NCBI GenBank assembly: GCA_938045545.1
Contig: CALIBN010000025.1
Location: forward strand, 1-12,271
Length of the DNA: 12,271 bases
Reading direction: 5' to 3'
Source of the DNA: an uncultured archaeon
GTDB lineage: Archaea > Thermoproteota > EX4484-205 > JAAOZP01
A program made the position numbers and the translations under genes. Shown here piece after piece: positions 1 to 12,271 of this stretch. The first letter of the stretch is position 1, and the number at the start of each line of letters is the position of its first letter. Below the pieces are notes generated by a model, which worked only from the letters and a program-made list of their open reading frames with translations, was not told the DNA's origin and did not search any database.

Positions 1-131
1 TAAGTCACTCCCCTATTAGGACTTTTAGTAGTGAAGGGATAATTCGCGATCGGAACATCCACCATAGTTAAGGCAGAGAAGAGCGTACTCTTACCCACGT
101 TCGGCTTACCCACCAACCCCGCAAGCTCCAT
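1..131 (-). CDS. ychF: YchF/OBG-family translation-associated P-loop NTPase, 5' end only (runs off the left edge)
   Basis: Not in the ORF track. Manual translation from ATG at 131 gives [44 protein letters not shown]1 (GKPNVGKS) and G2 (ANYPFTT) motifs lie right at the N-terminus, as in YchF-like proteins. Confidence 0.9.
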
Positions 132-365: not shown

Positions 366-2426
366 TTGGTATACAGGATAGGGATTGATATCGGTGGGGC
401 CTTTACTGATCTGGTTGGCTATGACGATGAAACCGGCGAGCTCGTCTGGGTCAAGGATGAGACAACACCACACGACCCCTCAATCGGCGTATTAAGAACA
501 ATTTCCAAAAGTGGAATAGATTTTTCTAAGGTCTTCTCCATCATACATGGGCAGACCCTTGTCATCAATACAATCATTGAGAGGAAAGGCGCTAAGGTCG
601 GCCTAATAACAACTAAGGGTTTTAGGGATGTCTTAGAGCTTCAAAGATCTAACAGGAGGGACATGTATAATTTCAGGTACCAAAAACCTGATCCAATCGT
701 TCCGAGGTATCTGCGCTTAGAGGTGGAGGAGCGCGTCACCGCAGACGGAGAGATCCTTAAGCCCATGAAGGAGGAGGATGTAGAGAATGCGCTCGAAAGA
801 TTTGTGAAGGAGGGTGTTGAGAGTATTTGTATAAGTTTCATAAACTCTTACGCAAACCCTAACCATGAACTCAGAGCAGGCGAGATAGTGCAGGGGCGTG
901 TAGATGCCCCTGTAACGTTAGGGCATGAAATAACTAGAGAGTGGAGGGAGTATGAACGTACTATGACGGCCGTTCTCAACGCTTATGTTAAACCTAAACT
1001 CATAAAATACTTGACAAAGCTGGAGGAGGCTTTCAAGGAGAGAGGTTTCAAAAGAAGCCCCTTTGTTATGCTCTCCAACGGCGGAGTAGCAACTTTTGAC
1101 ATAGCTAAAAAATTCCCCATATATACGATAGAATCCGGTCCCGTGGCGGGCGTGATAGGCGGGGTATACATAGCTAAACTAGTGGGAGACAGTAATGTAA
1201 TAATCCTAGATGGTGGGAGCACCACGACAAAAGCCAGCCTTGTTGAAGGTCTAATCCCCCGAGTCCATACGGAGTATTACGTAGAAAGGACGAAGACTTC
1301 TGCAGGGTATCCGGTGAGGGTGCCGGTAGTAGATACATTCGAGATAGGGAACGGAGGAACGAGTATTGCGTGGATTGACTCGATAGGGAACCTGAGAGTT
1401 GGGCCAAAGGCTGCTGGTGCTTATCCTGGACCCGCCTGCTACGGGAAAGGTGGAACCGAGCCTACCGTTACAGACGCCTATGTTGTGAACGGTTTAATCA
1501 ATCCTGAATATCTCTTGGGTGGGGCTATGAGAATACATAAAAAACTCGCCTACGACGTAATTGAACAAAAAGTTGCGGACCACTATAACATCTCTGTACA
1601 AGAAGCAGCTGAGGGTATCATTAAACTCGCTAACGAAAATGCAGCATTCGCTATTAGAGTGGTCTCAGTCCAGCGCGGCTATGACCCAAGAGACTTCACA
1701 CTAATAGTACATGGCGGATCAGGGCCAATGTTCGCCCCCTTCATCGCTCAAGAACTTGAGATAAAGAAGATAATAGTCCCGGTAATTCCTCCGGGGGTTT
1801 TCAGTGCATGGGGAATGCTCACCACGGATATACGGCACGACCTTGTCTATACCGAAATTGTTAGGCTGGATAAGGAGCCGGCGATAAGGAAGATAAACGA
1901 CATATACTCGCGGCTTGAGATGAAAATCCTTGAAATTTTCAGGGAGGAACTCGGCGTAGGCGAAGTTGTGATCCAGAGGTACGCTGACATGCGGTACTAT
2001 GGCCAAGAACATACGGTGAAGGTCCCGATTCTATCAGGAAATATAGATGCTGAGGAAATCAACGTGATAGTGAATAGGTTTCACGAGTATCATGAACGGG
2101 AATATGCATTTAGACTAGAAGGCCCTGTAGAAATCGTGAATTTCCACGTGGTCGGCGAGTATAAGATAAGAAAGTTTGAGCTCAAGGAGATTGAGAATCC
2201 AGCCGAGTCGTCCGACGACGCTTTAATCGGAGAGAGAAGAGTATATTTGAATGGTGATGATTTAACATTGTCTGTCTATAATAAGCAGAAGTTGTCTCCC
2301 CGATTCAAGATCAACGGACCCGCCATCATTGAAGATCCTACATCTACAGTTCTTGTCTTGGATACGCAGAAGGTATCGGTAGATAAATATGGTAATGTAA
2401 TTATCTCAGAGAGTGGGGGGATATGA
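366..2426 (+). CDS. hyuA: Hydantoinase A / 5-oxoprolinase family, ATP-binding subunit (HyuA/OplA/CapA-like)
   Basis: 686 aa. Motifs: GIDIGGAFTD, GLITTKGFRDVLE, REYERTMTAVLNAYV, IESGPVAGV, DGGSTTTK, GPACYGKGGTEPTVTDA, RGYDPRDF, DMRYYGQEH, GPAIIEDPTST. TTG start with GGTGG upstream. The symbol is family-level only. Confidence 0.93.
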   Translation: MVYRIGIDIGGAFTDLVGYDDETGELVWVKDETTPHDPSIGVLRTISKSGIDFSKVFSIIHGQTLVINTIIERKGAKVGLITTKGFRDVLELQRSNRRDMYNFRYQKPDPIVPRYLRLEVEERVTADGEILKPMKEEDVENALERFVKEGVESICISFINSYANPNHELRAGEIVQGRVDAPVTLGHEITREWREYERTMTAVLNAYVKPKLIKYLTKLEEAFKERGFKRSPFVMLSNGGVATFDIAKKFPIYTIESGPVAGVIGGVYIAKLVGDSNVIILDGGSTTTKASLVEGLIPRVHTEYYVERTKTSAGYPVRVPVVDTFEIGNGGTSIAWIDSIGNLRVGPKAAGAYPGPACYGKGGTEPTVTDAYVVNGLINPEYLLGGAMRIHKKLAYDVIEQKVADHYNISVQEAAEGIIKLANENAAFAIRVVSVQRGYDPRDFTLIVHGGSGPMFAPFIAQELEIKKIIVPVIPPGVFSAWGMLTTDIRHDLVYTEIVRLDKEPAIRKINDIYSRLEMKILEIFREELGVGEVVIQRYADMRYYGQEHTVKVPILSGNIDAEEINVIVNRFHEYHEREYAFRLEGPVEIVNFHVVGEYKIRKFELKEIENPAESSDDALIGERRVYLNGDDLTLSVYNKQKLSPRFKINGPAIIEDPTSTVLVLDTQKVSVDKYGNVIISESGGI

Positions 2427-4177
2427 GCAAATCCGATCTTTTCACTTTGGAGATCATTAAGAGCGGTCTTATCACGGCTAATGAAGAGATGTTTTACGCC
2501 TTCGGAAGAACAGCAAAGAGCCCCGTAATCTATGAGGTTTTAGACTATGCAGTCGCCATGACTAATTCAGATGGCGATTTAATAGCTCAGGCACCAGGTG
2601 TCCCTGGCTTCTCAGGTGTCCTTGACTTTGCGGCAAGAGAAGTGCTCGATAAGTGGAACGGTGAACTATTTCCGGGTGATGTGGTTGGGCTTAATGTTCC
2701 ATACAAGTCGGGTACGCATTTAAACGATGTTACATTGGCGATGCCGGTCTTCTACAAGGACGAACTCCTCTCTATTATTTTGAACAAGGGGCATTGGAGC
2801 GAGGTTGGAGGAATGCACTTCGGCAGCTGGACATCAGATTCGACAGAGATTTATCAAGAAGGAATCCTTCTGCCCTGCATAAAGTTATACAAAGAAGGTA
2901 AACCGAATAAAGACGTGATAGACATTATCTTGGAGAATTCCAGGCTTCCTCAACACACACTCGGCGATATGGAGGCACAAGTAGCTTCCATGAAGGTCGC
3001 ATCTCGCCGCGTTGAAAGACTAGTTGAGAAGTATGGCATCGAAATGGTGAAGAAAGCAATGGAAAAGATTTTAGCCGATGGGTACAGACTTGCGTTACTG
3101 AATATCAGTAAGTTGCCGAAGGGAGTTTTTGAAGCGGAGGATTACATCGATGATGACGGTTTAACAGATAATCCAGTGTACGTGAAGGTAAGAGTCACAA
3201 TAAGTGAGAATGAGTTTGTAGCAGACTTTACTGGAAGCGGCTCGGCAAAAGGCTCTATAGCTTCACCCTACGCCGCAACTGTCTCAGGTGTAAGAGAAAC
3301 ATACATAGCGGTTACGGATCCACACATACATTTCAACGGGGGGTATTTCAGGCCATTAAAAGTGATTGCGCCGCCCGGCTCCGTTTTTCACCCAGTTAAA
3401 CCTACGCCAACTTCTACATACTGGGAGTCAATGGCATATGCGACCGATTTAGTCTGGAAAGCTCTTGCACCACACGTACCCGATAAGCTGACTGCCGGAC
3501 ATTTTTTGTCTATACTTGCAACGATACTTGGAGGAGTAGATAATAGAATAGGTGAGCCTTTCGCTATCGTTGAACCTCAACCAGGTGGGTGGGGGGCAGG
3601 GTACGACAAAGATGGTGAGAGTGGACTAGTAGCATGTGGAGACGGTGAGACTTTTATAGCGTCCAACGAGGTTTACGAGAAACGTATGCCCATAATGGTA
3701 GACAGGTATTGTCTAAATGTAGAAGGAGGTACAGGTCATGGAAAATTCAGAGGAGGTTTTGGGGTAATAAAGGATTATCGCGTCCTATGTGATGAGGCCT
3801 ACTTTACCGTCTCAATAGGTCGGAGCAAGTTCCCGCCATGGGGGGTTGCGGGAGGAATGGATGGCACCCCCAACTATTGCGTAATATTCAAGCACGGCGA
3901 GGAGCCCAAAGTCACCAGAAAGGTTGCCGCCCTCAAATTGAGAAAAGGCGAAGTAGTGAGTCTGAGGTCTGGCGGCGGAGGAGGATGGGGTGATCCGCTG
4001 GAAAGGGATCCAGAGAGGGTTAGAATGGATGTAAAGAACGAGTACATAACAATCAAAGTGGCGAAGGAAATATACGGAGTAGTGCTGCATCCAAACACTT
4101 TAGAGATAGATTGGGATGCTACAAACGAGTTAAGGCAAAAAATAAAAAGGGAAAGGCAGAAGAAGACAACTAAATAG
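2423..4177 (+). CDS. hyuB: Hydantoinase B / oxoprolinase family, metal-binding subunit (HyuB/OplB/CapB-like)
   Basis: 584 aa with ATGA overlap to subunit A. Motifs: SPVIYEVLD (D41), GTHLND (H99, D102), GHWSEVGG (H124), EIYQEG, GGGGGWGDPLERDP. The symbol is family-level only. Confidence 0.93.
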   Translation: MSKSDLFTLEIIKSGLITANEEMFYAFGRTAKSPVIYEVLDYAVAMTNSDGDLIAQAPGVPGFSGVLDFAAREVLDKWNGELFPGDVVGLNVPYKSGTHLNDVTLAMPVFYKDELLSIILNKGHWSEVGGMHFGSWTSDSTEIYQEGILLPCIKLYKEGKPNKDVIDIILENSRLPQHTLGDMEAQVASMKVASRRVERLVEKYGIEMVKKAMEKILADGYRLALLNISKLPKGVFEAEDYIDDDGLTDNPVYVKVRVTISENEFVADFTGSGSAKGSIASPYAATVSGVRETYIAVTDPHIHFNGGYFRPLKVIAPPGSVFHPVKPTPTSTYWESMAYATDLVWKALAPHVPDKLTAGHFLSILATILGGVDNRIGEPFAIVEPQPGGWGAGYDKDGESGLVACGDGETFIASNEVYEKRMPIMVDRYCLNVEGGTGHGKFRGGFGVIKDYRVLCDEAYFTVSIGRSKFPPWGVAGGMDGTPNYCVIFKHGEEPKVTRKVAALKLRKGEVVSLRSGGGGGWGDPLERDPERVRMDVKNEYITIKVAKEIYGVVLHPNTLEIDWDATNELRQKIKRERQKKTTK

Positions 4178-4205
4178 ATAATCGTTAGACAGCCCTCCAC
4201 AGAGA

Positions 4206-4215
4206 GCTTTTTGTT
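4206..4215 (+). terminator. Possible archaeal oligo-T terminator after hyuB
   Basis: GCTTTTTGTT about 30 nt after the TAG stop. It lies upstream of a separate TATA-like element for the next gene. Confidence 0.3.
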
Positions 4216-4243
4216 GAAGATCCTGCCCGCTCTTAACCAACAA

Positions 4244-4250
4244 TTTTATA
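4244..4250 (+). promoter_or_regulatory. Putative TATA box for a (near-)leaderless peptidase transcript
   Basis: TTTTATA ending 29 nt before the ATG at 4279. There is no SD-like motif before that ATG. Confidence 0.45.
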
Positions 4251-4278
4251 GCCAACCACCATACTCTGATGATTCGCC

Positions 4279-5382
4279 ATGTACTTAGACAGGTTAAAGA
4301 GATTGAGGGAAAATATGGATCGCTTAAGTCTCGACGCGGTCATGCTGACTTTCGAGCCGAACATGTATTATTTATCCGGTTATAGCGCAATTTCCCTTGA
4401 ACGTTTAGTCGCACTATTGTTATTCAGAGAGCAAGAGACGGCGCACCTGATAGTGCCTAAACTTGAGAAGGATCGGGCCGAGGAGAATTGCAGGTTAAAA
4501 AAAGTTGAGATTCTCGCTTATAGTGATGTAGAGGACCCGATAAACGTAATGAGGGGGCTTTTTTCAAAATATCGTGTTGAAAACTTGGGCTTGGACGGAA
4601 GCACTCCCTACAGATTCGTTCACCCAATAATTTCTGCGGGTCTTGTATCGAGTCTTTCGCTTGTTGACGACATGATGTACTCTCTAAGGATCGTCAAAGA
4701 TGTTGAGGAGGTTAGATGCTTAGAAAGAGCTGCAGAGATCAATAATAAACTTATGTTAGAAAGTATTATTCACGTGGAGTCTGGCCTATCTGAGAAGCAG
4801 CTTGCCGCCTTCGTAAGAATGAGGGCATTAGAGCTAGGCGCTGATGAGGTTGCCTTCACTCTGATCCAGTCAGGAAGTAACTCTGCACTCCCCCATCAGG
4901 AACCGACAGAGAGGAGAATTGGTAATGGGGAAATAGTTCTTCTGGATATTGGTATCAAATTTATGGGATACTATTCTGATATAACTCGGACTATCACTTG
5001 CGGGAAACCTTCGCAGCAGCAGCAACAAATTTTTGACATAGTATATAGAGCCCAATCGGCCGCTATTGCAATAGCTAAGGAGGGGTCGAAGGCCGGCGAC
5101 CTAGACAAGGAAGCTAGGCAGACTATATCTGAGGCCGGGTATGGGGAGTACTTCATTCACAGGACGGGGCATGGATTAGGATTGGAAGTTCATGAACCTC
5201 CTTACATAAAAGGAGATAACAACCAAGAGTTAAGAAAAGGGATGGCGTTTACCGTAGAGCCGGGAATATATCTACCGGGAAGGTTTGGAGTTAGGCTGGA
5301 AGACAACCTGATAATAACTGAAGACGGGCACACCAACTTAACTAAATTGCCAAAATTTCTCTCGATTGAGGAGTATCTATAA
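4279..5382 (+). CDS. pepQ: M24B Xaa-Pro dipeptidase/aminopeptidase (prolidase-like)
   Basis: 367 aa, creatinase-N-type domain plus pita-bread domain. All five metal ligands are present: D223 (LLDIG), D234 (YYSDITRT), H298 (HRTGHGLGLEVHEPP), E327 (TVEPGIY), E341 (GVRLED). Confidence 0.9.
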   Translation: MYLDRLKRLRENMDRLSLDAVMLTFEPNMYYLSGYSAISLERLVALLLFREQETAHLIVPKLEKDRAEENCRLKKVEILAYSDVEDPINVMRGLFSKYRVENLGLDGSTPYRFVHPIISAGLVSSLSLVDDMMYSLRIVKDVEEVRCLERAAEINNKLMLESIIHVESGLSEKQLAAFVRMRALELGADEVAFTLIQSGSNSALPHQEPTERRIGNGEIVLLDIGIKFMGYYSDITRTITCGKPSQQQQQIFDIVYRAQSAAIAIAKEGSKAGDLDKEARQTISEAGYGEYFIHRTGHGLGLEVHEPPYIKGDNNQELRKGMAFTVEPGIYLPGRFGVRLEDNLIITEDGHTNLTKLPKFLSIEEYL

Positions 5383-5390
5383 CCAACGCG

Positions 5391-6371
5391 CTATTCGTAA
5401 AGCCAACATCTGACGACGTGTCCGTTATCTGTCATAACATCTGGTGGCTCGCGCTCGCTACAAACAGGCTTTGCGAAGGGACATCTAGTATGAAATCTAC
5501 ACCCCTTTGGTGGGCTTAGTGCACTAGGTATTTCTCCCACCGCCTCTACTCCCTTCGGTTTAATTTCCTCATCCTGCCTAGTCAGTGTTGGGATTGAAGA
5601 TAGGAGCATCTGAGTGTATGGGTGTAGTGGCTCTCTAAAGAATTCCTCCGTTGGGGCCTCCTCGTATATTTTCCCTAGATACATTATCATTACTCGGTGT
5701 GCTATGTTTCTCACAACACCTAAATCATGGGTGATCAAGAGATAGCTAATATCGTGTTCCTTCTGTATTCTACTTAATGTGTTAAGCACCTTCGCCTGTG
5801 ATGAAACGTCTAATGCGGAGGTAGGCTCGTCTAAGATTATAAAAGACGGGCTTGGGGCAAGGGCTCTAGCTATTGCAACGAGCTGCTTCTCTCCTCCACC
5901 AAGCTCGTGGGGGTACTTGAACATAAAATCTTCGCCTAAACCTACAAACTCCAACAATTCCGCCACTTTACCATAGACACCTGATGAATCAGCCAGTCGG
6001 TGGATACGTAATGGTAATCCAACGATATCTTTAATCATGTGCTTAGGATTAAGTGATGTCCCGGGGTCTTGAAAGACGATCTGAATCTCTCTCTTTAACT
6101 CAAGACTACGCTTCTTGATTGGAATTGATAAATCATGCCTTCCCTTATAGAGTATTCCTCCACTGTCCGGCGGATAGAAACCCATTACCACATGTCCGGT
6201 GGTTGTCTTCCCTGAGCCAGACTCGCCTACAAGTGCGAGGGTTTCACCATATTTTACTGAGAAGCTTACCCCGTCTACAGCCTTTACTATTCCTTCTTTT
6301 ATCTTGAAATATTTTCTAACATCAGAAACCATTAGTATCGAGTCCTTCTGCATATTCACACCCTCACTCAT
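5391..6371 (-). CDS. dppF: Dipeptide/oligopeptide ABC transporter ATP-binding protein (DppF/OppF-like)
   Basis: Walker A GESGSGKTT, Q-loop VFQDP, non-canonical signature LGGGE, Walker B IILDEPTSALD, THDL, and a C-terminal HPYT/Cys-rich domain. The real start may be the in-frame ATG at 6353, which follows SD GAGGGTG. Confidence 0.92.
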   Translation of the reverse strand: MSEGVNMQKDSILMVSDVRKYFKIKEGIVKAVDGVSFSVKYGETLALVGESGSGKTTTGHVVMGFYPPDSGGILYKGRHDLSIPIKKRSLELKREIQIVFQDPGTSLNPKHMIKDIVGLPLRIHRLADSSGVYGKVAELLEFVGLGEDFMFKYPHELGGGEKQLVAIARALAPSPSFIILDEPTSALDVSSQAKVLNTLSRIQKEHDISYLLITHDLGVVRNIAHRVMIMYLGKIYEEAPTEEFFREPLHPYTQMLLSSIPTLTRQDEEIKPKGVEAVGEIPSALSPPKGCRFHTRCPFAKPVCSEREPPDVMTDNGHVVRCWLYE

Positions 6372-7332
6372 ATAGGTGGCATGCCACTGCGTGGTCTGTA
6401 TTGATAATGGTTCTCTTAGGCTTTACTGTATGGCATTTGTCCAATGCGTAGGGGCATCTCGGAGCGAATCTGCAACCAATAGGCGGGAAGCGGTAGTCAG
6501 GTAGCTTGCCTCTAATTCCTTCGCCTATCTCACGTGTACTTATTTTAGGTGCGCTGGAAATAAGCAAGCTTGTATATGGGTGAGCTGGATGGTCAAACAG
6601 CTCGCTCGTCCTAGCCTCCTCCATTATGTCTCCCGCATACAGCACATATGCTCTATCAGTCATTTGGCGAACCATACCCAACGCATGTGACACCAATATG
6701 GTGCTCAGTCCTCTCTGCTTTACCAGCCTATCAATCAACTTCAATATCTGGTCTTGAATTGTAACGTCGATATTAGTGGTTGGCTCATCCGCGAGCAAAA
6801 GTTTGCCTGCAGATATTAAGGCCATGGCAATCATTACCCTTTGCCTCATACCACCGCTTAACTGGAAGGGGAAGGACTCCAAAACCCTCTCGTAGTCAGG
6901 AAGCTTCACGTCATTCAATACCCTTACTGCATGATCATGTAACTCCTCTTTCGTAGGATTATGCCCCTCTGCCAATAACTTATACTTGACTACGTCGTAT
7001 AACTGGTCCTTAATCTTGAATACCGGATTCAAGGCAGCCATAGGGTCTTGGAATATCATTCCTATTTCTCGCCTTCTCACCGTCGAAAGCTCGGCCTCGC
7101 CGGATCTCAGTATGTCTATGTCCTTAAACTTTATCACACCGCTGGGAATAAGTGCGTTCTGAGGAAGGATTCTCAATATGGATTTAAGGAGTGTTGTTTT
7201 CCCGCTGCCCGTTTCACCAATTATTCCTACCCTTTCTCCCTCTACCATTCTCAACCAAACACCGTTTAATACTTTATTGATATACCAGTAGCTCTTATAA
7301 TGAACGTAAAGATCCTGAATGTTTAGCAGCAT
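6364..7332 (-). CDS. dppD: Dipeptide/oligopeptide ABC transporter ATP-binding protein (DppD/OppD-like)
   Basis: GETGSGKTT, IFQDPMAALNP, QLSGGMRQRVMIAMAL, LLLADEPTT, HPYT and GCRFAPRC..C..ACHL. SD GGGTGA lies 6 nt before the ATG. Confidence 0.92.
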   Translation of the reverse strand: MLLNIQDLYVHYKSYWYINKVLNGVWLRMVEGERVGIIGETGSGKTTLLKSILRILPQNALIPSGVIKFKDIDILRSGEAELSTVRRREIGMIFQDPMAALNPVFKIKDQLYDVVKYKLLAEGHNPTKEELHDHAVRVLNDVKLPDYERVLESFPFQLSGGMRQRVMIAMALISAGKLLLADEPTTNIDVTIQDQILKLIDRLVKQRGLSTILVSHALGMVRQMTDRAYVLYAGDIMEEARTSELFDHPAHPYTSLLISSAPKISTREIGEGIRGKLPDYRFPPIGCRFAPRCPYALDKCHTVKPKRTIINTDHAVACHLYE

Positions 7333-7334
7333 AC

Positions 7335-8243
7335 TTAATCACCCGCAAAGACGTCTCTAATTCCGTCGCCGAGCAAATTAAATGAAAGTATTATCAATAC
7401 AATGCCGAGTGCAGGGCCCATGCTCATCCACCAGTAACTCGGGAGGTACTTGCTATACTCCGATACCATTGTTCCTAGGTCAGGTGTCGGCGGCTGTGCC
7501 CCAAGGCCGACGAAACTAATAGCGGCCCCTATCAGTACAACCCATCCAGCGTCCAACGTAACTTTGGTAAGTATTATGCCTAGCTGGTTTGGCAGCAACT
7601 CGCGGAAGAGAATATGAACAGTGGAGGCGCCTTGCGCCTCGGCTGCAAGTATGAACGGCTCATTCCTAAGAGACGCGGTGACAGAATGGGTTAGTTTAAC
7701 GTACCAGGGCCACCACATCAATGATACTGCTAGCATGGCATTGTATATGTTGGGCTCCAGTATCGAAGCGATTGCTAGGGCTAAGACCAGATAAGGTATT
7801 GAAATGAATATGTCTGATAATCGAATGATTATCGTCTCTATTATGGTTCCTCTATAATATCCGGCAATAAGGCCTAAGACCACACCAGTAGGCACCACTA
7901 GTGAGAGAACTATCCCTATTAACAGGAAAGCGTATCGGAATCCAAATATAACGCGACTTAACACGTCTCGCCCGTACATGTCTGTGCCAAGTAGGTGCTC
8001 TAAGCTTGGCGGTTTATAGGCATCCTTAAAATTGATGTACAGTCCGGCATGCTCAGGATAGGGGGCAATAAACTCTGCTAGGCCAACAAAGAGGATTAGA
8101 AGACAGATAAGCGACAGGCCAATTAAAGAGAGTCTACTCCTCTTAAATCTGTACCAGACCCGCTTCAGATTCTCTCTCTTAACACGTCGCTCAAGCCCGA
8201 GGTACCGCCTCTGAGCATCAAGTGTCCTACTCATTCGTCTCAC
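7335..8243 (-). CDS. dppC: Dipeptide/oligopeptide ABC transporter permease (DppC/OppC-like)
   Basis: HLLGTDMYGRDVLSR, EAA loop FILAAEAQGAS, SFVGLGAQPPTPDLG, FNLLGDGIRD. The likely start is the ATG at 8234 after SD AGGTGA. Confidence 0.92.
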   Translation of the reverse strand: MRRMSRTLDAQRRYLGLERRVKRENLKRVWYRFKRSRLSLIGLSLICLLILFVGLAEFIAPYPEHAGLYINFKDAYKPPSLEHLLGTDMYGRDVLSRVIFGFRYAFLLIGIVLSLVVPTGVVLGLIAGYYRGTIIETIIIRLSDIFISIPYLVLALAIASILEPNIYNAMLAVSLMWWPWYVKLTHSVTASLRNEPFILAAEAQGASTVHILFRELLPNQLGIILTKVTLDAGWVVLIGAAISFVGLGAQPPTPDLGTMVSEYSKYLPSYWWMSMGPALGIVLIILSFNLLGDGIRDVFAGD

Positions 8244-9313
8244 CTTTTATGTTTGATGCGTGGATCTAAGTTCGAGATAAGCAAATCTATGACAATAGAC
8301 GCTAAGGTATAGGCGAGGCCAATTACAAGAACGACGCCAACAATCGCGTTTAAGTCTTTTCTTAACATGGCGGTTATGCCATATCTTGACAGACCGGGCC
8401 AATTAAATATAAACTCGACTAGAAATGCATTCCCTATCAAAGACGCCATGTCTAATGTCATTATCGTTACCGTTGGAATCATGGAGGGTTTTAGTGCATA
8501 TTTAAAGAACACGACAGAACCTGGGAGCCCATGGGAATACATGTTCAGAATATAATCTTTATTCACATTCTCTATGAGGTTTGCCCTTAGAATTCTTGCC
8601 TCTTGGGCTATTGTCCCTATAGCGAGGGCGAGAGAGGGTATGATAAGATGGCTCAAGGCATCAAAGAATGCGGGTATGTTACCCTGTAGCAGGGTATCCA
8701 ATGTGACAAGCCCAGTTATCCTTTTCACTTCGTATCCTAGACTTAGCCGACCATAGGCAGGTAGCAAACCTAGCCAGCTTGCCAAGATTAGCTGAAGAAT
8801 TATGGCCCAGACAAAGGAAGGAATCGCAATTCCTGCATAAGCGAACACGCGCACAAAGTTGTCTACGGCCGAGTTGGGTCTCCTGCCACTCAAAACCCCT
8901 AGAGTAAAAGCACCGACTACATCGATTACAAGTGCAAATACTATAAGTTCAACCGTAGCTGGCAGAAATTCTATGATATCTGTAGTTACATCTCTGAATG
9001 TGACCAAAGATATGCCAAGTCTTCCGTGGAAAACATCTGTTAGCCATACAAAATACTGGACGTATAGGGGTTCATGAAGATGGAGCATCTGCCTATACTG
9101 CTCTACAACGTCTTCGGGCGCTCTGGGGCCCAAAGCAAGCCTAGCGGGGTCGCCTGGTAAGACGCGCGCAATTACAAAGATGAGTACTGATATACCTAGT
9201 AGCGTTACTATACTATACGCTATTTTTCTTATGTAATAGTTATCAATTAGGCTGGATAATCTAGCACTTATCCGCGACTGACTTGTATTCAGATCAGAAT
9301 CTTGGTTCGTCAT
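8240..9313 (-). CDS. dppB: Dipeptide/oligopeptide ABC transporter permease (DppB/OppB-like)
   Basis: LPGDPA, LYVQYFVWL..G.LGIS, PATVEL, IPSFVWA, VEFIFNWPGL, C-terminal DLL...LDPRI, and multiple hydrophobic segments. Confidence 0.92.
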   Translation of the reverse strand: MTNQDSDLNTSQSRISARLSSLIDNYYIRKIAYSIVTLLGISVLIFVIARVLPGDPARLALGPRAPEDVVEQYRQMLHLHEPLYVQYFVWLTDVFHGRLGISLVTFRDVTTDIIEFLPATVELIVFALVIDVVGAFTLGVLSGRRPNSAVDNFVRVFAYAGIAIPSFVWAIILQLILASWLGLLPAYGRLSLGYEVKRITGLVTLDTLLQGNIPAFFDALSHLIIPSLALAIGTIAQEARILRANLIENVNKDYILNMYSHGLPGSVVFFKYALKPSMIPTVTIMTLDMASLIGNAFLVEFIFNWPGLSRYGITAMLRKDLNAIVGVVLVIGLAYTLASIVIDLLISNLDPRIKHKR

Positions 9314-9349
9314 GGCTGCGTCATTACTCGGACTCTTCCGCGGGGCGGA

Positions 9350-10093
9350 TCATAATAGATCCGTTAGGCCCCATTTCTGGAGCTCGGAAAGGGGTGGGGG
9401 TTCGTAAGTGTATTTTCTGCTGTGCGCCCAGCCGCAGAGTTCTTTAAGCCTCACGTGATGTTCGGCATGCTTTAGCGAAGCAATGATAGGGTCTATTACA
9501 GGTATTCCAAACCTCGTTTGTACCTCTCTGTAGAAGCCGAAAAAGACTGTACACCCCAATATTACTACTTCGGCCCCCTCATTGACACTCTCCTCAACCG
9601 ATTCCATAAGCCTCCTTTCTGTTTCACGCTCATCCTTATGAAGGTCGTGGACCCCCATTTCTATGTCCTTAAAAGATACAAGCCTATCCTTTAAACCATA
9701 TTCTTTGATTCTACTCATCATTAGCGGTATCCATTTCTTCCGGCCAACTATAATTGAGAATTTGTCTCCTAAAGATAATGCCAGTGTTGTAGATGATTCA
9801 AGGGGTGCGGTTACGACGATATTGCTTATTTCACGCGCCTCTCTTAGTCCGGGGTCATAGAAACATCCTATTATACAGGCATCATACCCTTCTTTTTCAG
9901 CTTTTTTGACCTCTTTCAATATTTGAGGCACAACTAATGCATCATATGCATAGTATTCGAGATGATGCGGACCCCATTTGAAGGAGACGACGTCTAGGTT
10001 TGTCGATGGATCTTTGTATCCCTCCAAGTAGTCTTTCATAGGTTTATCAAAGATTGAAGTTCCGACCGGGTTGATGAATAAAATTCTAGCCAT
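9350..10093 (-). CDS. Asp/Glu/hydantoin racemase family protein (hydantoin/allantoin racemase-like)
   Basis: 247 aa. N-terminal RILFINP, two catalytic cysteines C77 (IIGCFYDPGLREARE) and C181 (GAEVVILGCT), and GIPVIDP. SD GGGTG at 10102-10106. Confidence 0.88.
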   Translation of the reverse strand: MARILFINPVGTSIFDKPMKDYLEGYKDPSTNLDVVSFKWGPHHLEYYAYDALVVPQILKEVKKAEKEGYDACIIGCFYDPGLREAREISNIVVTAPLESSTTLALSLGDKFSIIVGRKKWIPLMMSRIKEYGLKDRLVSFKDIEMGVHDLHKDERETERRLMESVEESVNEGAEVVILGCTVFFGFYREVQTRFGIPVIDPIIASLKHAEHHVRLKELCGWAHSRKYTYEPPPLSELQKWGLTDLL

Positions 10094-10134
10094 TTAATAA
10101 ACACCCATAAAAAATATTCGCACAGGGTGTCGCG

Positions 10135-11814
10135 TCATGACGGGATTTTTTCTGGGAAGACTTGGAACCATCTGAAGTCTAGCTCATATTCTGCTATTGG
10201 TAGGACTTCTCCCCTAGCAGCCGGATAGTCAACATAGTCGGCCTGATAGGCTCTAAGCACTACATGCTCATACACAAATACCGATGGTGCCAGCTCATCC
10301 AGCTTTTTCTGTATCTCATAATACTTCTGCATCCGCTGATTAAAGTCTACCGTAGCTAGTGCATCCTCTATCATTTTATCGATCTCTGGATTCATTAACC
10401 ATTCTCCTTGTTCCCATGTTCCAGTGGCTGCGGAGTGATATCTCGACATGAGTATAGACCCTGCCTCCGCATAGTGGGCGATTACAAATATTGAAACTGC
10501 GTTTGGCGTTGTTTCCATCTTGGTCATACCCTCCACCACTGAGAGCCAGGGGACCTTCACTACATTGACTTTGAGCCCAATCTCCTCCATGTTAAGTTTG
10601 AAAAGCAACGCAACCCTCTCCTCCCACGGGACCTCGGCAATCCACCAGAACTCTATCGGATACTGGTCAAGCTTTCCCCAATACTTCGATTTCCTGAGCT
10701 CCTCCTTAGCAGCCTCTACATTCCTTTCCATGGGCTTTCTCGCCGGATCTGCCCCTGGGAGCATGCTTGGGACCGGGCCTGAAGGACGCTTCTCAAACGG
10801 CATTATATCGTTTATTGCCGTTTCATAGTCAAAAGCCAGTGTAATTGCCCTCCTGACATGTACGTCATCTGTTGGAGGTTTCTTGGTATGGAGCATTATG
10901 TAGAAGATCATTGCTGATGGTACTTTCGCGATCTTAACCCCCGGTATCTTGGCCATTGCGTCGTAGTTTTCTAGTGGTTGCCACTGGTCGGTAACCTCCA
11001 GCTGTCTCTTCTCCATCATGGTTCGTATTGTGGTGGGTTCTGTGAAGCCATACATTATTACTTTAGTCGGGGAGTTTGGTGCTGTGTCACCCCAGTATCC
11101 GTCATACTTTACTAGGGTTACAGATTCCCCTCTCTTATGCTCAAATAGCTTGTACGGTCCCGATCCAGCGTCTTGTTCGCCAGACATCAACCAGTTTTTC
11201 CCATAGTCTCCCATCTCACCGTAGGGGCCTTCTGTCTTGTGCTGCTTCACTAGCTCGCTATCAACAATGTAGAGCCGCACTAGGGTGATGAGGAATGGGC
11301 CGAATGGCTTCGTAAGTGTTATCTGAACTGTGTAATCATCCAGAGCCACTGTCCTTTCAAGGTCGATGTAGGGTTTGAATAAGTAGCCGTAGCCTTCTCC
11401 TATTGTTATCATCCGTTTCAGGGAAAAAATAACGTCCTCTGCCTTGAGTTCGCGTCCGCTATGAAACTTTACTCCCTTCCTAAGGTGGAACTTCCAGACC
11501 ATCCCATCTCCAGATACCTCCCATTTTTCAGCTACATGTGGTCTGACAGTCCCATCCTTATTCGGATAGACTAGTGTGTCATAGACGTTTAAGAAATAGA
11601 CCGAGCTCGCCTCATCCGAGCCTACGGCCGGATCCATGTATGGCACATTGGCAAAAGAGACCCTCAGCAGCCTCTCTTTCGGCGGGGCGGTCTGCCCGGT
11701 TAATGTAGTGCCCGTAAGAACGAACCCTACCGCTGCAACAACGGCTATCACAACGACTATAGCAGCAATAACGAGTGTCCTCCTCCCTCTGATACTAGTT
11801 TTGCCCGCTGTCAT
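10135..11814 (-). CDS. dppA: Family 5 (DppA/OppA-like) ABC substrate-binding protein with N-terminal membrane anchor
   Basis: 559 aa. Basic N-terminus plus hydrophobic helix, NVYDTLV, AEKWEVSGDG..WKFHLRKGVKFHSG..LKAEDVIFS (family 5 signature), GSGPYKL, DDVHVRRAI. Confidence 0.92.
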   Translation of the reverse strand: MTAGKTSIRGRRTLVIAAIVVVIAVVAAVGFVLTGTTLTGQTAPPKERLLRVSFANVPYMDPAVGSDEASSVYFLNVYDTLVYPNKDGTVRPHVAEKWEVSGDGMVWKFHLRKGVKFHSGRELKAEDVIFSLKRMITIGEGYGYLFKPYIDLERTVALDDYTVQITLTKPFGPFLITLVRLYIVDSELVKQHKTEGPYGEMGDYGKNWLMSGEQDAGSGPYKLFEHKRGESVTLVKYDGYWGDTAPNSPTKVIMYGFTEPTTIRTMMEKRQLEVTDQWQPLENYDAMAKIPGVKIAKVPSAMIFYIMLHTKKPPTDDVHVRRAITLAFDYETAINDIMPFEKRPSGPVPSMLPGADPARKPMERNVEAAKEELRKSKYWGKLDQYPIEFWWIAEVPWEERVALLFKLNMEEIGLKVNVVKVPWLSVVEGMTKMETTPNAVSIFVIAHYAEAGSILMSRYHSAATGTWEQGEWLMNPEIDKMIEDALATVDFNQRMQKYYEIQKKLDELAPSVFVYEHVVLRAYQADYVDYPAARGEVLPIAEYELDFRWFQVFPEKIPS

Positions 11815-11822
11815 GTAGTTTA

Positions 11823-11834
11823 GAGATCGATCTC
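11823..11834. promoter_or_regulatory. Perfect 12-bp palindrome, candidate repressor operator
   Basis: GAGATCGATCTC is its own reverse complement. It lies between the TATA box and the ATG of the SBP gene. Confidence 0.5.
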
Positions 11835-11837
11835 GCC

Positions 11838-11853
11838 CTATATATCTCTTTCA
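11838..11853 (-). promoter_or_regulatory. BRE-TATA promoter of the ABC/racemase operon (leaderless)
   Basis: Minus strand reads TGAAAGAGATATATAG: a purine-rich run followed by TATATA ending 25 nt before the ATG at 11814. No SD is present. Confidence 0.6.
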
Positions 11854-12034
11854 GCCGAATAGTGATTTACAAAAAGGATTGATTATAGGATTTAGCGATG
11901 AAATGTCTTAGTTCTTAGGGAAGGTATTGCCTAACAAATCGGCGGGTATTGAAAGCTGTTGGGAGGCCTAGATGAAGGTTTAAGAACATATTTTAGTGTA
12001 TGTCATTGTCTTTGCGTGAGGCTGGTGTTTGTAG

Positions 12035-12271
12035 ATGGTGTATGATCTATTGGTGATTGGTGCGGGTATTGTTGGTTTGACCTCCGCCTATCATTTCGTT
12101 AGGGGTGGAGGTGGCAGGGTGTTGGTCGTTGACGCCAATGGTGGCCCTGCTCAGGGGAATACTGCGAGGAGCGTTGGTGGATTCCGCATGGGGCTGTTCA
12201 CCTCTCGTGTTAACAGGCTTATCTCAGAGACCACCGTCAAATTCTACTTGGATGTTCAGAAGAGTGGCTAT
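12035..12271 (+). CDS. FAD-dependent oxidoreductase, DAO/sarcosine oxidase family, possibly dye-linked L-proline dehydrogenase; 5' end only (runs off the right edge)
   Basis: Not in the ORF track. Manual translation: MVYDLLVIGAGIVGLTSAYHFVRGGGGRVLVVDANGGPAQGNTARSVGGFRMGLFTSRVNRLISETTVKFYLDVQKSGY. It has a Rossmann GxGxxG motif, an acidic residue at the end of beta-2, and a GNTARSxG motif. GGTG lies at 12024-12027. Confidence 0.85.
   Translation, partial: MVYDLLVIGAGIVGLTSAYHFVRGGGGRVLVVDANGGPAQGNTARSVGGFRMGLFTSRVNRLISETTVKFYLDVQKSGY

Follow-up and report, generated by a model that had tools for sequence, protein, structure and literature searches.

What does a microorganism gain from keeping genes for a predicted ring-opening lactamase beside those for a prolidase-like peptidase, a racemase, an importer and a flavoprotein? 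The question is raised by a stretch of DNA that we call the window, the entire 12,271-base contig C25 of assembly G000 (GCA_938045545.1), in which adjacent HyuA- and HyuB-like genes adjoin an M24 peptidase gene, a Dpp/Opp-type ATP-binding cassette (ABC) importer operon with an embedded racemase gene, and the start of a DAO-family gene. Throughout, L-numbers denote related loci, G-numbers genomes and C-numbers contigs. Judging from gene context, we put at roughly 0.5 the probability that these genes are an accessory system by which a chiral cyclic amide, small and uncharged, is catabolized or salvaged by way of an Xaa-Pro dipeptide, the most likely substrates being cyclo(Xaa-Pro) 2,5-diketopiperazines. 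A first-pass annotation had sketched a related archaeal route, in which heat-damaged cyclic peptides are taken up by a peptide importer, epimerized, opened with ATP and cleaved to give proline. The conserved gene set, the tie to an M24 peptidase and proline as product survive our analysis; the notion of an archaeal or heat-damage specialty is contradicted, and the peptide nature of the importer has become doubtful.

Gene set, conservation and host lineage

Open reading frame (ORF) calling and Pfam scans place ten genes and one stub in the window. The HyuA-like ATP-binding subunit of the predicted ATP-dependent lactamase (366-2426, plus strand) is 686 amino acids long from a TTG start and matches Hydantoinase_A, Hydant_A_N and Hydant_A_C (E 6e-93, 5e-53 and 5e-18). 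Its end is overlapped by 4 bases by the start of the gene for the HyuB-like subunit, the predicted metal-dependent hydrolytic partner (2423-4177, plus strand; 584 amino acids; Hydantoinase_B, E 4.6e-161), and 101 bases downstream of the latter begins the gene for an M24B prolidase-like metallopeptidase of 367 amino acids (4279-5382, plus strand; Peptidase_M24 and Creatinase_N). A minus-strand operon of six genes, separated by gaps of -8 to 41 bases, converges on the peptidase gene. It encodes a cluster-C substrate-binding protein with an N-terminal membrane anchor (10135-11814; 559 amino acids; SBP_bac_5, E 4.5e-69); a two-cysteine racemase/epimerase of the hydantoin-racemase branch of PF01177, its gene lying inside the operon (9350-10093; 247 amino acids; Asp_Glu_race, E 3.6e-38); a DppB/OppB-like permease (8240-9313; BPD_transp_1 and BPD_transp_1_N) and a DppC/OppC-like permease (7335-8243; BPD_transp_1 and OppC_N); and two ATPases matching ABC_tran and oligo_HPY, one DppD/OppD-like (6364-7332) and one DppF/OppF-like (5391-6371), for which the top NCBIfam entry is a dipeptide ABC ATP-binding protein model, under its cut-off. 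Diverging from the binding-protein gene, the DAO-family gene (12035-12271, plus strand; DAO, E 1.9e-12) is ended by the contig edge after 79 amino acids.

These are the genes listed by the first-pass annotation, which also credited the prolidase with all its metal ligands, and ORFs, Pfam and alignment confirm every item. Its remark that the window lacks an N-carbamoylase and an NCS1 permease is equally correct, since no further ORF of at least 80 amino acids is present in the window beyond the listed genes. Rfam and tRNA scans of the window gave no match, and none of the ten window proteins attains an NCBIfam equivalog. A candidate shared operator, the 9-mer AATCAATCC upstream of both the HyuA and the binding-protein genes (about 0.4 occurrences expected by chance, by our own estimate), was rejected, as its 7-base core ATCAATC is in neither upstream region of any of 12 related loci.

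The gene set recurs well beyond the window. A HyuB search with one genome per species gave 52 loci, against which the window proteins were compared by tblastn, and all nine core genes are found in 11 of them. The window's gene order is seen in L002, L003, L004, L015, L016 and L021; in L006, L009, L011 and L013 the set is rearranged, with the M24 gene beyond the far side of the transporter, and L014, from Thermoproteota, has a third order. Five further loci (L005, L007, L008, L010 and L012) hold a partial set, and several of these reach a contig end, so that genes may lie beyond it. Among annotated plasmids, 460 records carry a HyuB homologue. One co-directional run on pTHTHE1601 of Thermus thermophilus SG0.5JP17-16 encodes a racemase, a binding protein, two permeases, two ATPases, an Xaa-Pro peptidase family protein, HyuA, HyuB and a second HyuB; a haloarchaeal plasmid carries a cupin, HyuA, HyuB, a racemase and five transporter genes, and genes HVO_RS03545-03580 on pHV4 of Haloferax volcanii encode a transporter, HyuA, HyuB and a cupin. 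Because the system is found in mesophilic gut Clostridia, Bacilli, Thermus and haloarchaea, it is neither peculiar to archaea nor tied to heat damage.

Within Caldarchaeales, the order of the likely true host of the contig (see below), HyuB at 81% identity or more is present in 15 of 76 genomes. M24 at 50% identity or more is found in the same 15 and additionally in G073 (1 of the 61 others), there at the end of a contig. The threshold of 71% identity for the racemase is passed in 14 of the HyuB-positive genomes and in none of the 61 others. As the genomes are related, these counts do not amount to a statistical test. With orthologues sharing the same 14-15 of 76 genomes, this pattern shows that HyuB, M24 and racemase keep company from genome to genome and that the system is accessory, and not part of the housekeeping gene complement. 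Paralogous HyuAB pairs of the same order (53-62% identical) adjoin a cupin and an M24 of 42-44% identity (L069, L073 and L074).

To survey neighbors, ORFs of all loci were clustered and representatives scanned against Pfam. Bacterial HyuAB relatives are 40-50% identical to the window pair, and among their neighbors are an XRE-cupin regulator and, immediately behind HyuB, a small Cupin_2 protein. M24 genes accompany the bacterial pairs in L019, L033, L034, L035, L037, L038, L039, L047 and L051, and on a HyuB tree of 62 rows, a quick version in which the long branches L082, L019_2, L027 and L072 are placed uncertainly, linkage to M24 is scattered over about nine places, on archaeal and bacterial branches alike. 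Among 139 unlabeled ORFs within 4 kb of HyuAB in 34 loci, Peptidase_M20 and CN_hydrolase each have fewer than two members, and MFS_1 (6) and MatE (3) lead; there is one weak M20 match, in L041. The first-pass annotation had suggested weighing linkage to M24 peptidases against linkage to M20 or nitrilase-fold carbamoylases, and had let its case depend on the gene combination being kept in other genomes. The combination is kept across archaea and bacteria, and the linkage that recurs is to M24, carbamoylases of either type being no recurrent neighbors.

Other features of these neighborhoods deserve mention. The Cupin_2 protein, about 111 amino acids long, is encoded after HyuB in the majority of clusters from bacteria, from haloarchaea and among the archaeal paralogues (for example L014 11734-12069, L020 11732-12070, L078-L080, and L069 12358-12699) and is missing from the window's own clade. 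Further paralogous clusters of a Dpp-type importer and HyuAB occur within Caldarchaeales in L072 (G078:C38) and L075 (G045:C45), one with its own racemase (39% identical), and have no M24 nearby. On a Planococcus glaciei plasmid (L081), what seems to be the remnant of an M24 partner, a fragment annotated as an aminopeptidase P family N-terminal domain, lies at 4469-4699, upstream of HyuAB; DUF917, DUF1177 and cytosine-permease genes are next to it.

The contig itself appears out of place in its assembly. HyuB is present in 1 of 26 genomes of G000's order, namely G000, and 16 genomes from the same genus gave none. Tetranucleotide correlation of C25 with the rest of the bin is r = 0.61, compared with 0.92 and 0.96 for the similar-sized C44 and C45 and with 0.65 for C19. 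At its left end, outside the cluster, the contig holds the first 43 codons of an unrelated P-loop GTPase gene (3-131, minus strand), truncated by the contig edge and syntenic with a 402-amino acid gene in the six loci that share the window's gene order; the 43 amino acids of this stub are 100% identical to the L015 gene, while G000's full copy on C10 is only 51% identical. Further genes flanking L015 match G000 at 36-55%. On these grounds C25 is most likely mis-binned, and its source would be a hot-spring archaeon like HR02 or the Calditenuaceae; the loci closest to the window come from Archaeon HR02, Candidatus Calditenuaceae, Aigarchaeota and Caldarchaeales. With the contig probably foreign to the bin, the outcome of searching G000 for carbamoylases, PxpA, pyroglutamyl peptidase and extra copies of HyuB, M24 and the racemase is uninformative as to the true host; absences scored there were discarded as evidence, and the key absence searches were redone in five host-lineage genomes (G026-G030). 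The main genome of the bin carries a second PF01177 racemase broken over two frames (G000:C45:10371-11026) and a CN_hydrolase gene interrupted by an internal TAA stop (G000:C11:56560-57552).

A predicted route from cyclic amide to proline

Adjacent A and B domains, ATP motifs and an Asp-His-Asp-His site are all present in the window pair and place it in the ATP-dependent hydantoinase/oxoprolinase/lactamase family, which predicts lactam hydrolysis. HyuA carries the ATP motifs DIGGAFTD (8-15), DGGST (282-286) and GAYPGP (351-356), with Ala in the first where CapA of Pseudomonas jessenii has Thr (compared with the motifs in PMC8453981). The HyuB metal tetrad D41, H99, D102 and H124 is numbered as in CapB, and all 62 aligned relatives keep it. 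For both subunits the best solved relative is 7hk5 (E 1.5e-124 for HyuA and 1.2e-72 for HyuB), followed by CapAB (CapA, 6yra_A, E 5e-116 for HyuA), and the caprolactamase equivalogs NF050156 and NF050157 are not reached (541 and 254 bits, each cut-off being 1000). As a marker of M24 linkage, HyuB pocket residues mapped from CapB were tried and rejected: E38 occurs in all 62 relatives and in 7hk5, and position 136 is mostly aromatic, so that linked enzymes are not separated from unlinked ones.

To our knowledge, the substrates established for this family (5-oxoproline, N-methylhydantoin and caprolactam) all have a ring N-H beside the attacked carbonyl. All mechanisms proposed for it (PMC8453981) begin in the A subunit, where a secondary lactam is activated as its lactim tautomer, through phosphorylation or, in one version, through carboxylation; hydrolysis at the metal site of the B subunit follows. 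Applied to cyclo(Xaa-Pro), this chemistry suggests a complete route. The membrane-anchored binding protein and the ABC transporter would import the ring compound, and the two-cysteine racemase would epimerize a ring alpha-carbon and thereby make D-containing isomers usable. HyuA would then phosphorylate the lactim form of the sole secondary amide, Pro-CO-NH-Xaa, for hydrolysis by HyuB. As only this amide has an N-H, and the tertiary Xaa-CO-N(Pro) cannot be activated, the product of such a reaction would have to be H-Xaa-Pro-OH, released from the ring with its imide bond at first cis. This is exactly the substrate class of M24B prolidases; the M24B peptidase would split it, and the neighboring homologue of L-proline dehydrogenase would oxidize the proline.

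Aligned with Pyrococcus furiosus prolidase (1pv9), the M24 enzyme has the metal ligands D223, D234, H298, E327 and E341, and H207, H294 and H305 are conserved too. It scores 264 bits on a prolidase model, and E 1e-73 against PDB 1wy2, compared with 84 bits on the model for the ectoine hydrolase DoeA; the 264 bits lie under the 630-bit cut-off of the archaeal PepQ equivalog NF040821. Eighteen of 20 aligned HyuAB-linked M24s (all but L039 and L082) have H-R-[TLI]-G-H and Y, F or D at the position of P. furiosus R295, while the hosts' other M24B paralogue (about 30% identical; L083-L085 in G026, G027 and G029) keeps the P. furiosus-like H-S-L-G-H and P-P-R-I. This difference may be a specificity switch. 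Because the genomes hold this separate paralogue with different motifs, the cluster M24 is, by sequence, a dedicated copy.

In the racemase, C77 and C181 lie in two GC motifs that align with those of OpaE (9qbx), its best PDB match (E 1.3e-20, 77 bits), with allantoin and hydantoin racemases next; the two cysteines and PF01177 assign it to the two-cysteine hydantoin racemases. OpaE, from the oxepinamide pathway of Aspergillus ustus, turns a D residue into L in non-ribosomal peptide derivatives, according to PMC12661438 and PMC7530659. PF01177 racemases, dipeptide ABC transporters and peptidases have been described as enriched around cyclodipeptide oxidases by Andreas and Giessen (PMC10557607). 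Caldarchaeales genomes (G074-G078, G050 and G083) hold up to five hydantoin-racemase-family paralogues, 33-46% identical to the window racemase, some of them as adjacent divergent pairs (for example G083:C2:96713-98183).

The importer has the complete Dpp/Opp-type layout, with a cluster-C binding protein, two permeases and two ATPases with an oligo_HPY tail, and the best PDB match of the binding protein is Escherichia coli DppA (E 1e-30, in an alignment of about 25% identity). We take DppA R355 to hold the dipeptide carboxylate and D408 its ammonium group. Approximately, given the low identity of the alignment, these become V395 and H447 in the window protein. Across 24 HyuAB-linked binding proteins, the R355 column holds V, L, D or F and never Arg (0/24); the D408 column holds H in 13, Asp in 4 (Clostridia only), with V, I, S, T or G elsewhere. 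These replacements weakly suggest a ligand without free charged ends, and, as they affect the residues that would grip peptide termini, they make the label of peptide importer doubtful. NCS1 permeases take the importer's place in eight bacterial loci (L020, L023, L028, L029, L030, L036, L041 and L046), and MFS transporters do so in others. Together with the R355 column, this exchange of transporters points to an uncharged heterocycle as the substrate.

Evidence on the fate of the product comes from flavoproteins and dehydrogenases beside the core genes. The 79-amino acid DAO fragment in the window is 86% identical to the N-terminus of a 421-amino acid orthologue in L015, which matches PDB 3axb and 3vqr (E 3e-89) and whose AlphaFold model (34 homologues; predicted local distance difference test score 93) superposes on 3axb with a template-modeling score of 0.93 and 38% identity. 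Identity drops to about 22% for the PDB matches that come next, which are sarcosine oxidases and the beta subunit of the P. horikoshii L-proline dehydrogenase, and NCBIfam leaves the orthologue unassigned (best 63 bits). Thus, the match of the full-length orthologue to 3axb upholds the earlier description of this gene as proline dehydrogenase-like. Two unrelated kinds of proline dehydrogenase adjoin the same core, the DAO type in the window and the PF01619 type in Bacilli. By annotation, pGEOTH01 of Parageobacillus thermoglucosidasius C56-YS93 carries a racemase, MFS, XRE-cupin, HyuA, HyuB (50% identical to the window's), cupin, an Xaa-Pro peptidase family protein, pruA and proline dehydrogenase; L019 of Bacillus canaveralius has the same parts in a different order, with a PF01619 proline dehydrogenase and a 1-pyrroline-5-carboxylate dehydrogenase. 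Proline as the end product, also part of the original proposal, is therefore backed both by the DAO homologue of a characterized archaeal L-proline dehydrogenase and by PF01619 and pruA in these clusters.

A further gene fits the predicted cis product. Cyclophilin-type prolyl isomerases lie by HyuAB in ten Clostridia loci (L028-L031, L034, L035, L037, L038, L047 and L051; for example L028 5985-6584, L034 6043-6624 and L037 12690-13475, with a DUF3830 gene in L019 at 17332-17787), and none was seen in thermophile loci. As far as is known, prolidase cleaves only trans Xaa-Pro. In mesophiles the isomerase would convert freshly released cis Xaa-Pro into the cleavable trans form, and its restriction to mesophilic Clostridia would be explained if isomerization is fast enough in hot environments. 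We tentatively propose, at somewhat less than even odds, that this HyuAB clade consists of ATP-dependent cyclodipeptide hydrolases which, with the ring epimerase, the prolidase and the prolyl isomerase of mesophiles, would constitute the first molecularly defined pathway for proline diketopiperazines, spread by gene transfer among hot-spring archaea, Thermus, Bacilli, haloarchaea and gut Clostridia.

Competing substrates

Other cyclic amides could be served by much of the same gene set. In the classical use of 5-substituted hydantoins, HyuAB would yield an N-carbamoyl amino acid, the racemase would exchange D and L hydantoins, and the carbamoyl group would be removed by M24 or by a remote carbamoylase. 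HyuA, HyuB and a hydantoin racemase do occur together in the hyu genes of Pseudomonas sp. NS671, the NCS1 permeases that replace the ABC importer in eight bacterial loci belong to the family of the hydantoin permease Mhp1, and each of the five host-lineage genomes has three CN_hydrolase genes elsewhere. We judge this route unlikely, if likelier than the other alternatives: neither M20 nor CN_hydrolase recurs among the 139 neighboring ORFs, the hydantase model TIGR01879 exceeds its cut-off in 0 of the 5 host-lineage genomes, we know of no M24 carbamoylase, and the dedicated M24B, the cyclophilins and the two unrelated kinds of proline dehydrogenase would be left unexplained. Salvage of pyroglutamyl (pGlu) peptides, in which pGlu-Pro or pGlu-Xaa would be imported, the lactam opened by HyuAB to Glu-Pro, for example, and the product cleaved by M24, comes next in our ranking and is again unlikely. 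It would still account for proline release and would suit a family that includes 5-oxoprolinases, hosts in which PxpA is found in 0 of 5 genomes, and binding proteins most of which have replaced the Asp that holds the N-terminus in DppA. However, the carboxylate of a pGlu dipeptide stays free and the R355 column is never Arg; the racemase would have no obvious role, and the NCS1 permeases of relatives indicate neutral heterocycles.

Another lactam or cyclic amidine, such as an omega-lactam or an ectoine-like ring, with M24 acting as a non-peptide amidohydrolase like DoeA, seems improbable to us. The M24 family does include DoeA, creatinase and DddP, the window enzyme has its 84 bits on the DoeA model, and aminotransferases stand beside some HyuAB relatives as they do in caprolactam clusters; even so, the enzyme scores far higher on prolidase models and structures, and the proline-catabolic neighbors would go unexplained. 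Most improbable of all is a housekeeping 5-oxoprolinase that happens to lie beside an unrelated peptide importer and prolidase. In its favor are the lack of PxpA in G026-G030 and the greater closeness of HyuA and HyuB to the fused 7hk5 than to caprolactamase. A housekeeping role, however, sits badly with an orthologue found in only 15 of 76 genomes of the order, and neither 5-oxoproline nor pGlu peptides as substrates would account for this patchy distribution, the racemase or the NCS1 permeases; moreover, the gene co-occurs with its own M24 and racemase orthologues, in a linkage that outlasts rearrangement and inter-domain transfer.

Several observations weigh against cyclo(Xaa-Pro) diketopiperazines as the substrates. 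M24 is absent, despite ample flank, from L018, L020, L022, L023, L028, L041, L048, L072, L078 and L080, and aminotransferases adjoin some relatives instead of M24 (L036, L041 and L081), so that several lactams are probably handled across the wider HyuAB clade. Linkage to the proline dehydrogenase homologue is confined to the window and five close relatives, CDC48 being the next gene, and Geocrenenecus-type loci carry argH/argG by HyuB in place of the DAO gene. The binding-protein residues were compared at about 25% identity, in a family, SBP_bac_5, that also takes metals, opines and sugars. Given that PxpA is missing from the five host-lineage genomes, window-type HyuAB could be their only 5-oxoprolinase, and the CN_hydrolase genes of those genomes, the nearest in G026 about 90 kb away, may include a remote carbamoylase. 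Finally, the searched literature offers no tested substrate for any member of this HyuAB clade, only one speculative sentence, in Otzen et al., 2018 (PMC6061476), to the effect that many "oxoprolinase" genes may encode a lactamase or a cyclic dipeptide hydrolase.

Significance and relation to known systems

Heated and fermented foods, protein hydrolysates and microbial culture fluids are rich in proline diketopiperazines, which act as signals and withstand ordinary peptidases. If the pathway exists as proposed, it could explain how microorganisms consume such very stable cyclic dipeptides, and would give a function to a large block of genes labeled only as "hydantoinase/oxoprolinase family" and "Xaa-Pro peptidase family". 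It would also add a source of carbon and nitrogen to models of hot-spring and gut microbes, and provide thermostable ATP-driven enzymes for opening stable six-membered dilactams. As the same gene set is present in cultured Thermus and Parageobacillus, with related genes in Haloferax, the idea is open to direct testing. Strains that degrade diketopiperazines have been described by Perzborn et al., 2013 (PMC3852281), who name no enzymes. Our full-text literature searches, which covered neither supplements nor most subscription journals and could therefore miss a prior report, found no paper linking Aigarchaeota with hydantoinase and none assigning a HyuAB enzyme to diketopiperazines.

Known systems resemble the window in parts. 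CapAB of Pseudomonas jessenii (PDB 6yra) shares the A/B architecture, the ATP motifs and the Asp-His-Asp-His metal site (PMC8453981). However, at the positions of the CapB pocket residues L38, I62 and Y136 the window HyuB has E, G and W, and the enzyme downstream of CapAB is an aminotransferase, where the window has a peptidase. Among 5-oxoprolinases (eukaryotic OPLAH, bacterial OplAB) and the fused 1288-amino acid 7hk5, which was deposited as an N-methylhydantoinase, the nearest solved relative is 7hk5; unlike these, the window HyuAB is a split two-gene form with a patchy distribution, tied to an importer, a racemase and a peptidase.

Two catabolic systems come closer in gene content. The hyuA-hyuB-hyuC-hyuE genes of Pseudomonas sp. 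NS671 combine an ATP-dependent two-subunit ring-opening amidase with a two-cysteine racemase and require the carbamoylase HyuC, in place of which the window has the M24B peptidase, no carbamoylase being linked in the window or, the weak M20 match of L041 apart, in about 60 related loci. Agropinic acid catabolism on octopine-type Ti plasmids pairs a Dpp-type importer, AgaABCD, with the HyuAB-like delactamase AgaF/AgaG; its substrate is an opine lactam, and, unlike the window, it is not known to involve a racemase or M24 peptidase.

The remaining parts each have a counterpart of their own. With E. coli DppABCDF (1dpe, 1dpp) the importer has in common the five-component layout and the binding-protein family, and differs in the exchange of R355 and D408 for V395 and H447 and in the racemase gene inside the operon. 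The M24 shares with the P. furiosus and P. horikoshii prolidases (1pv9, 1wy2) a two-domain fold of Creatinase_N and a pita-bread M24 domain, five metal ligands and conserved histidines, from which Xaa-Pro cleavage is predicted, but it falls below the PepQ cut-off and is altered at the R295 position. For the flavoprotein, of which the window holds only 79 amino acids, the full-length orthologue matches the dye-linked L-proline dehydrogenase of Aeropyrum pernix (3axb) in fold and sequence, and L-proline oxidation is the predicted activity. OpaE (9qbx), of the Asp/Glu/hydantoin racemase family, inverts a residue within a cyclized peptide, and both its cysteine motifs align with those of the window racemase; unlike the latter it is fungal and biosynthetic, and the match amounts to only 77 bits. 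Taken as a whole, there is good comparative evidence for a conserved pathway that would take up a cyclic amide and release proline, as a variant of the known HyuAB-type catabolic clusters.

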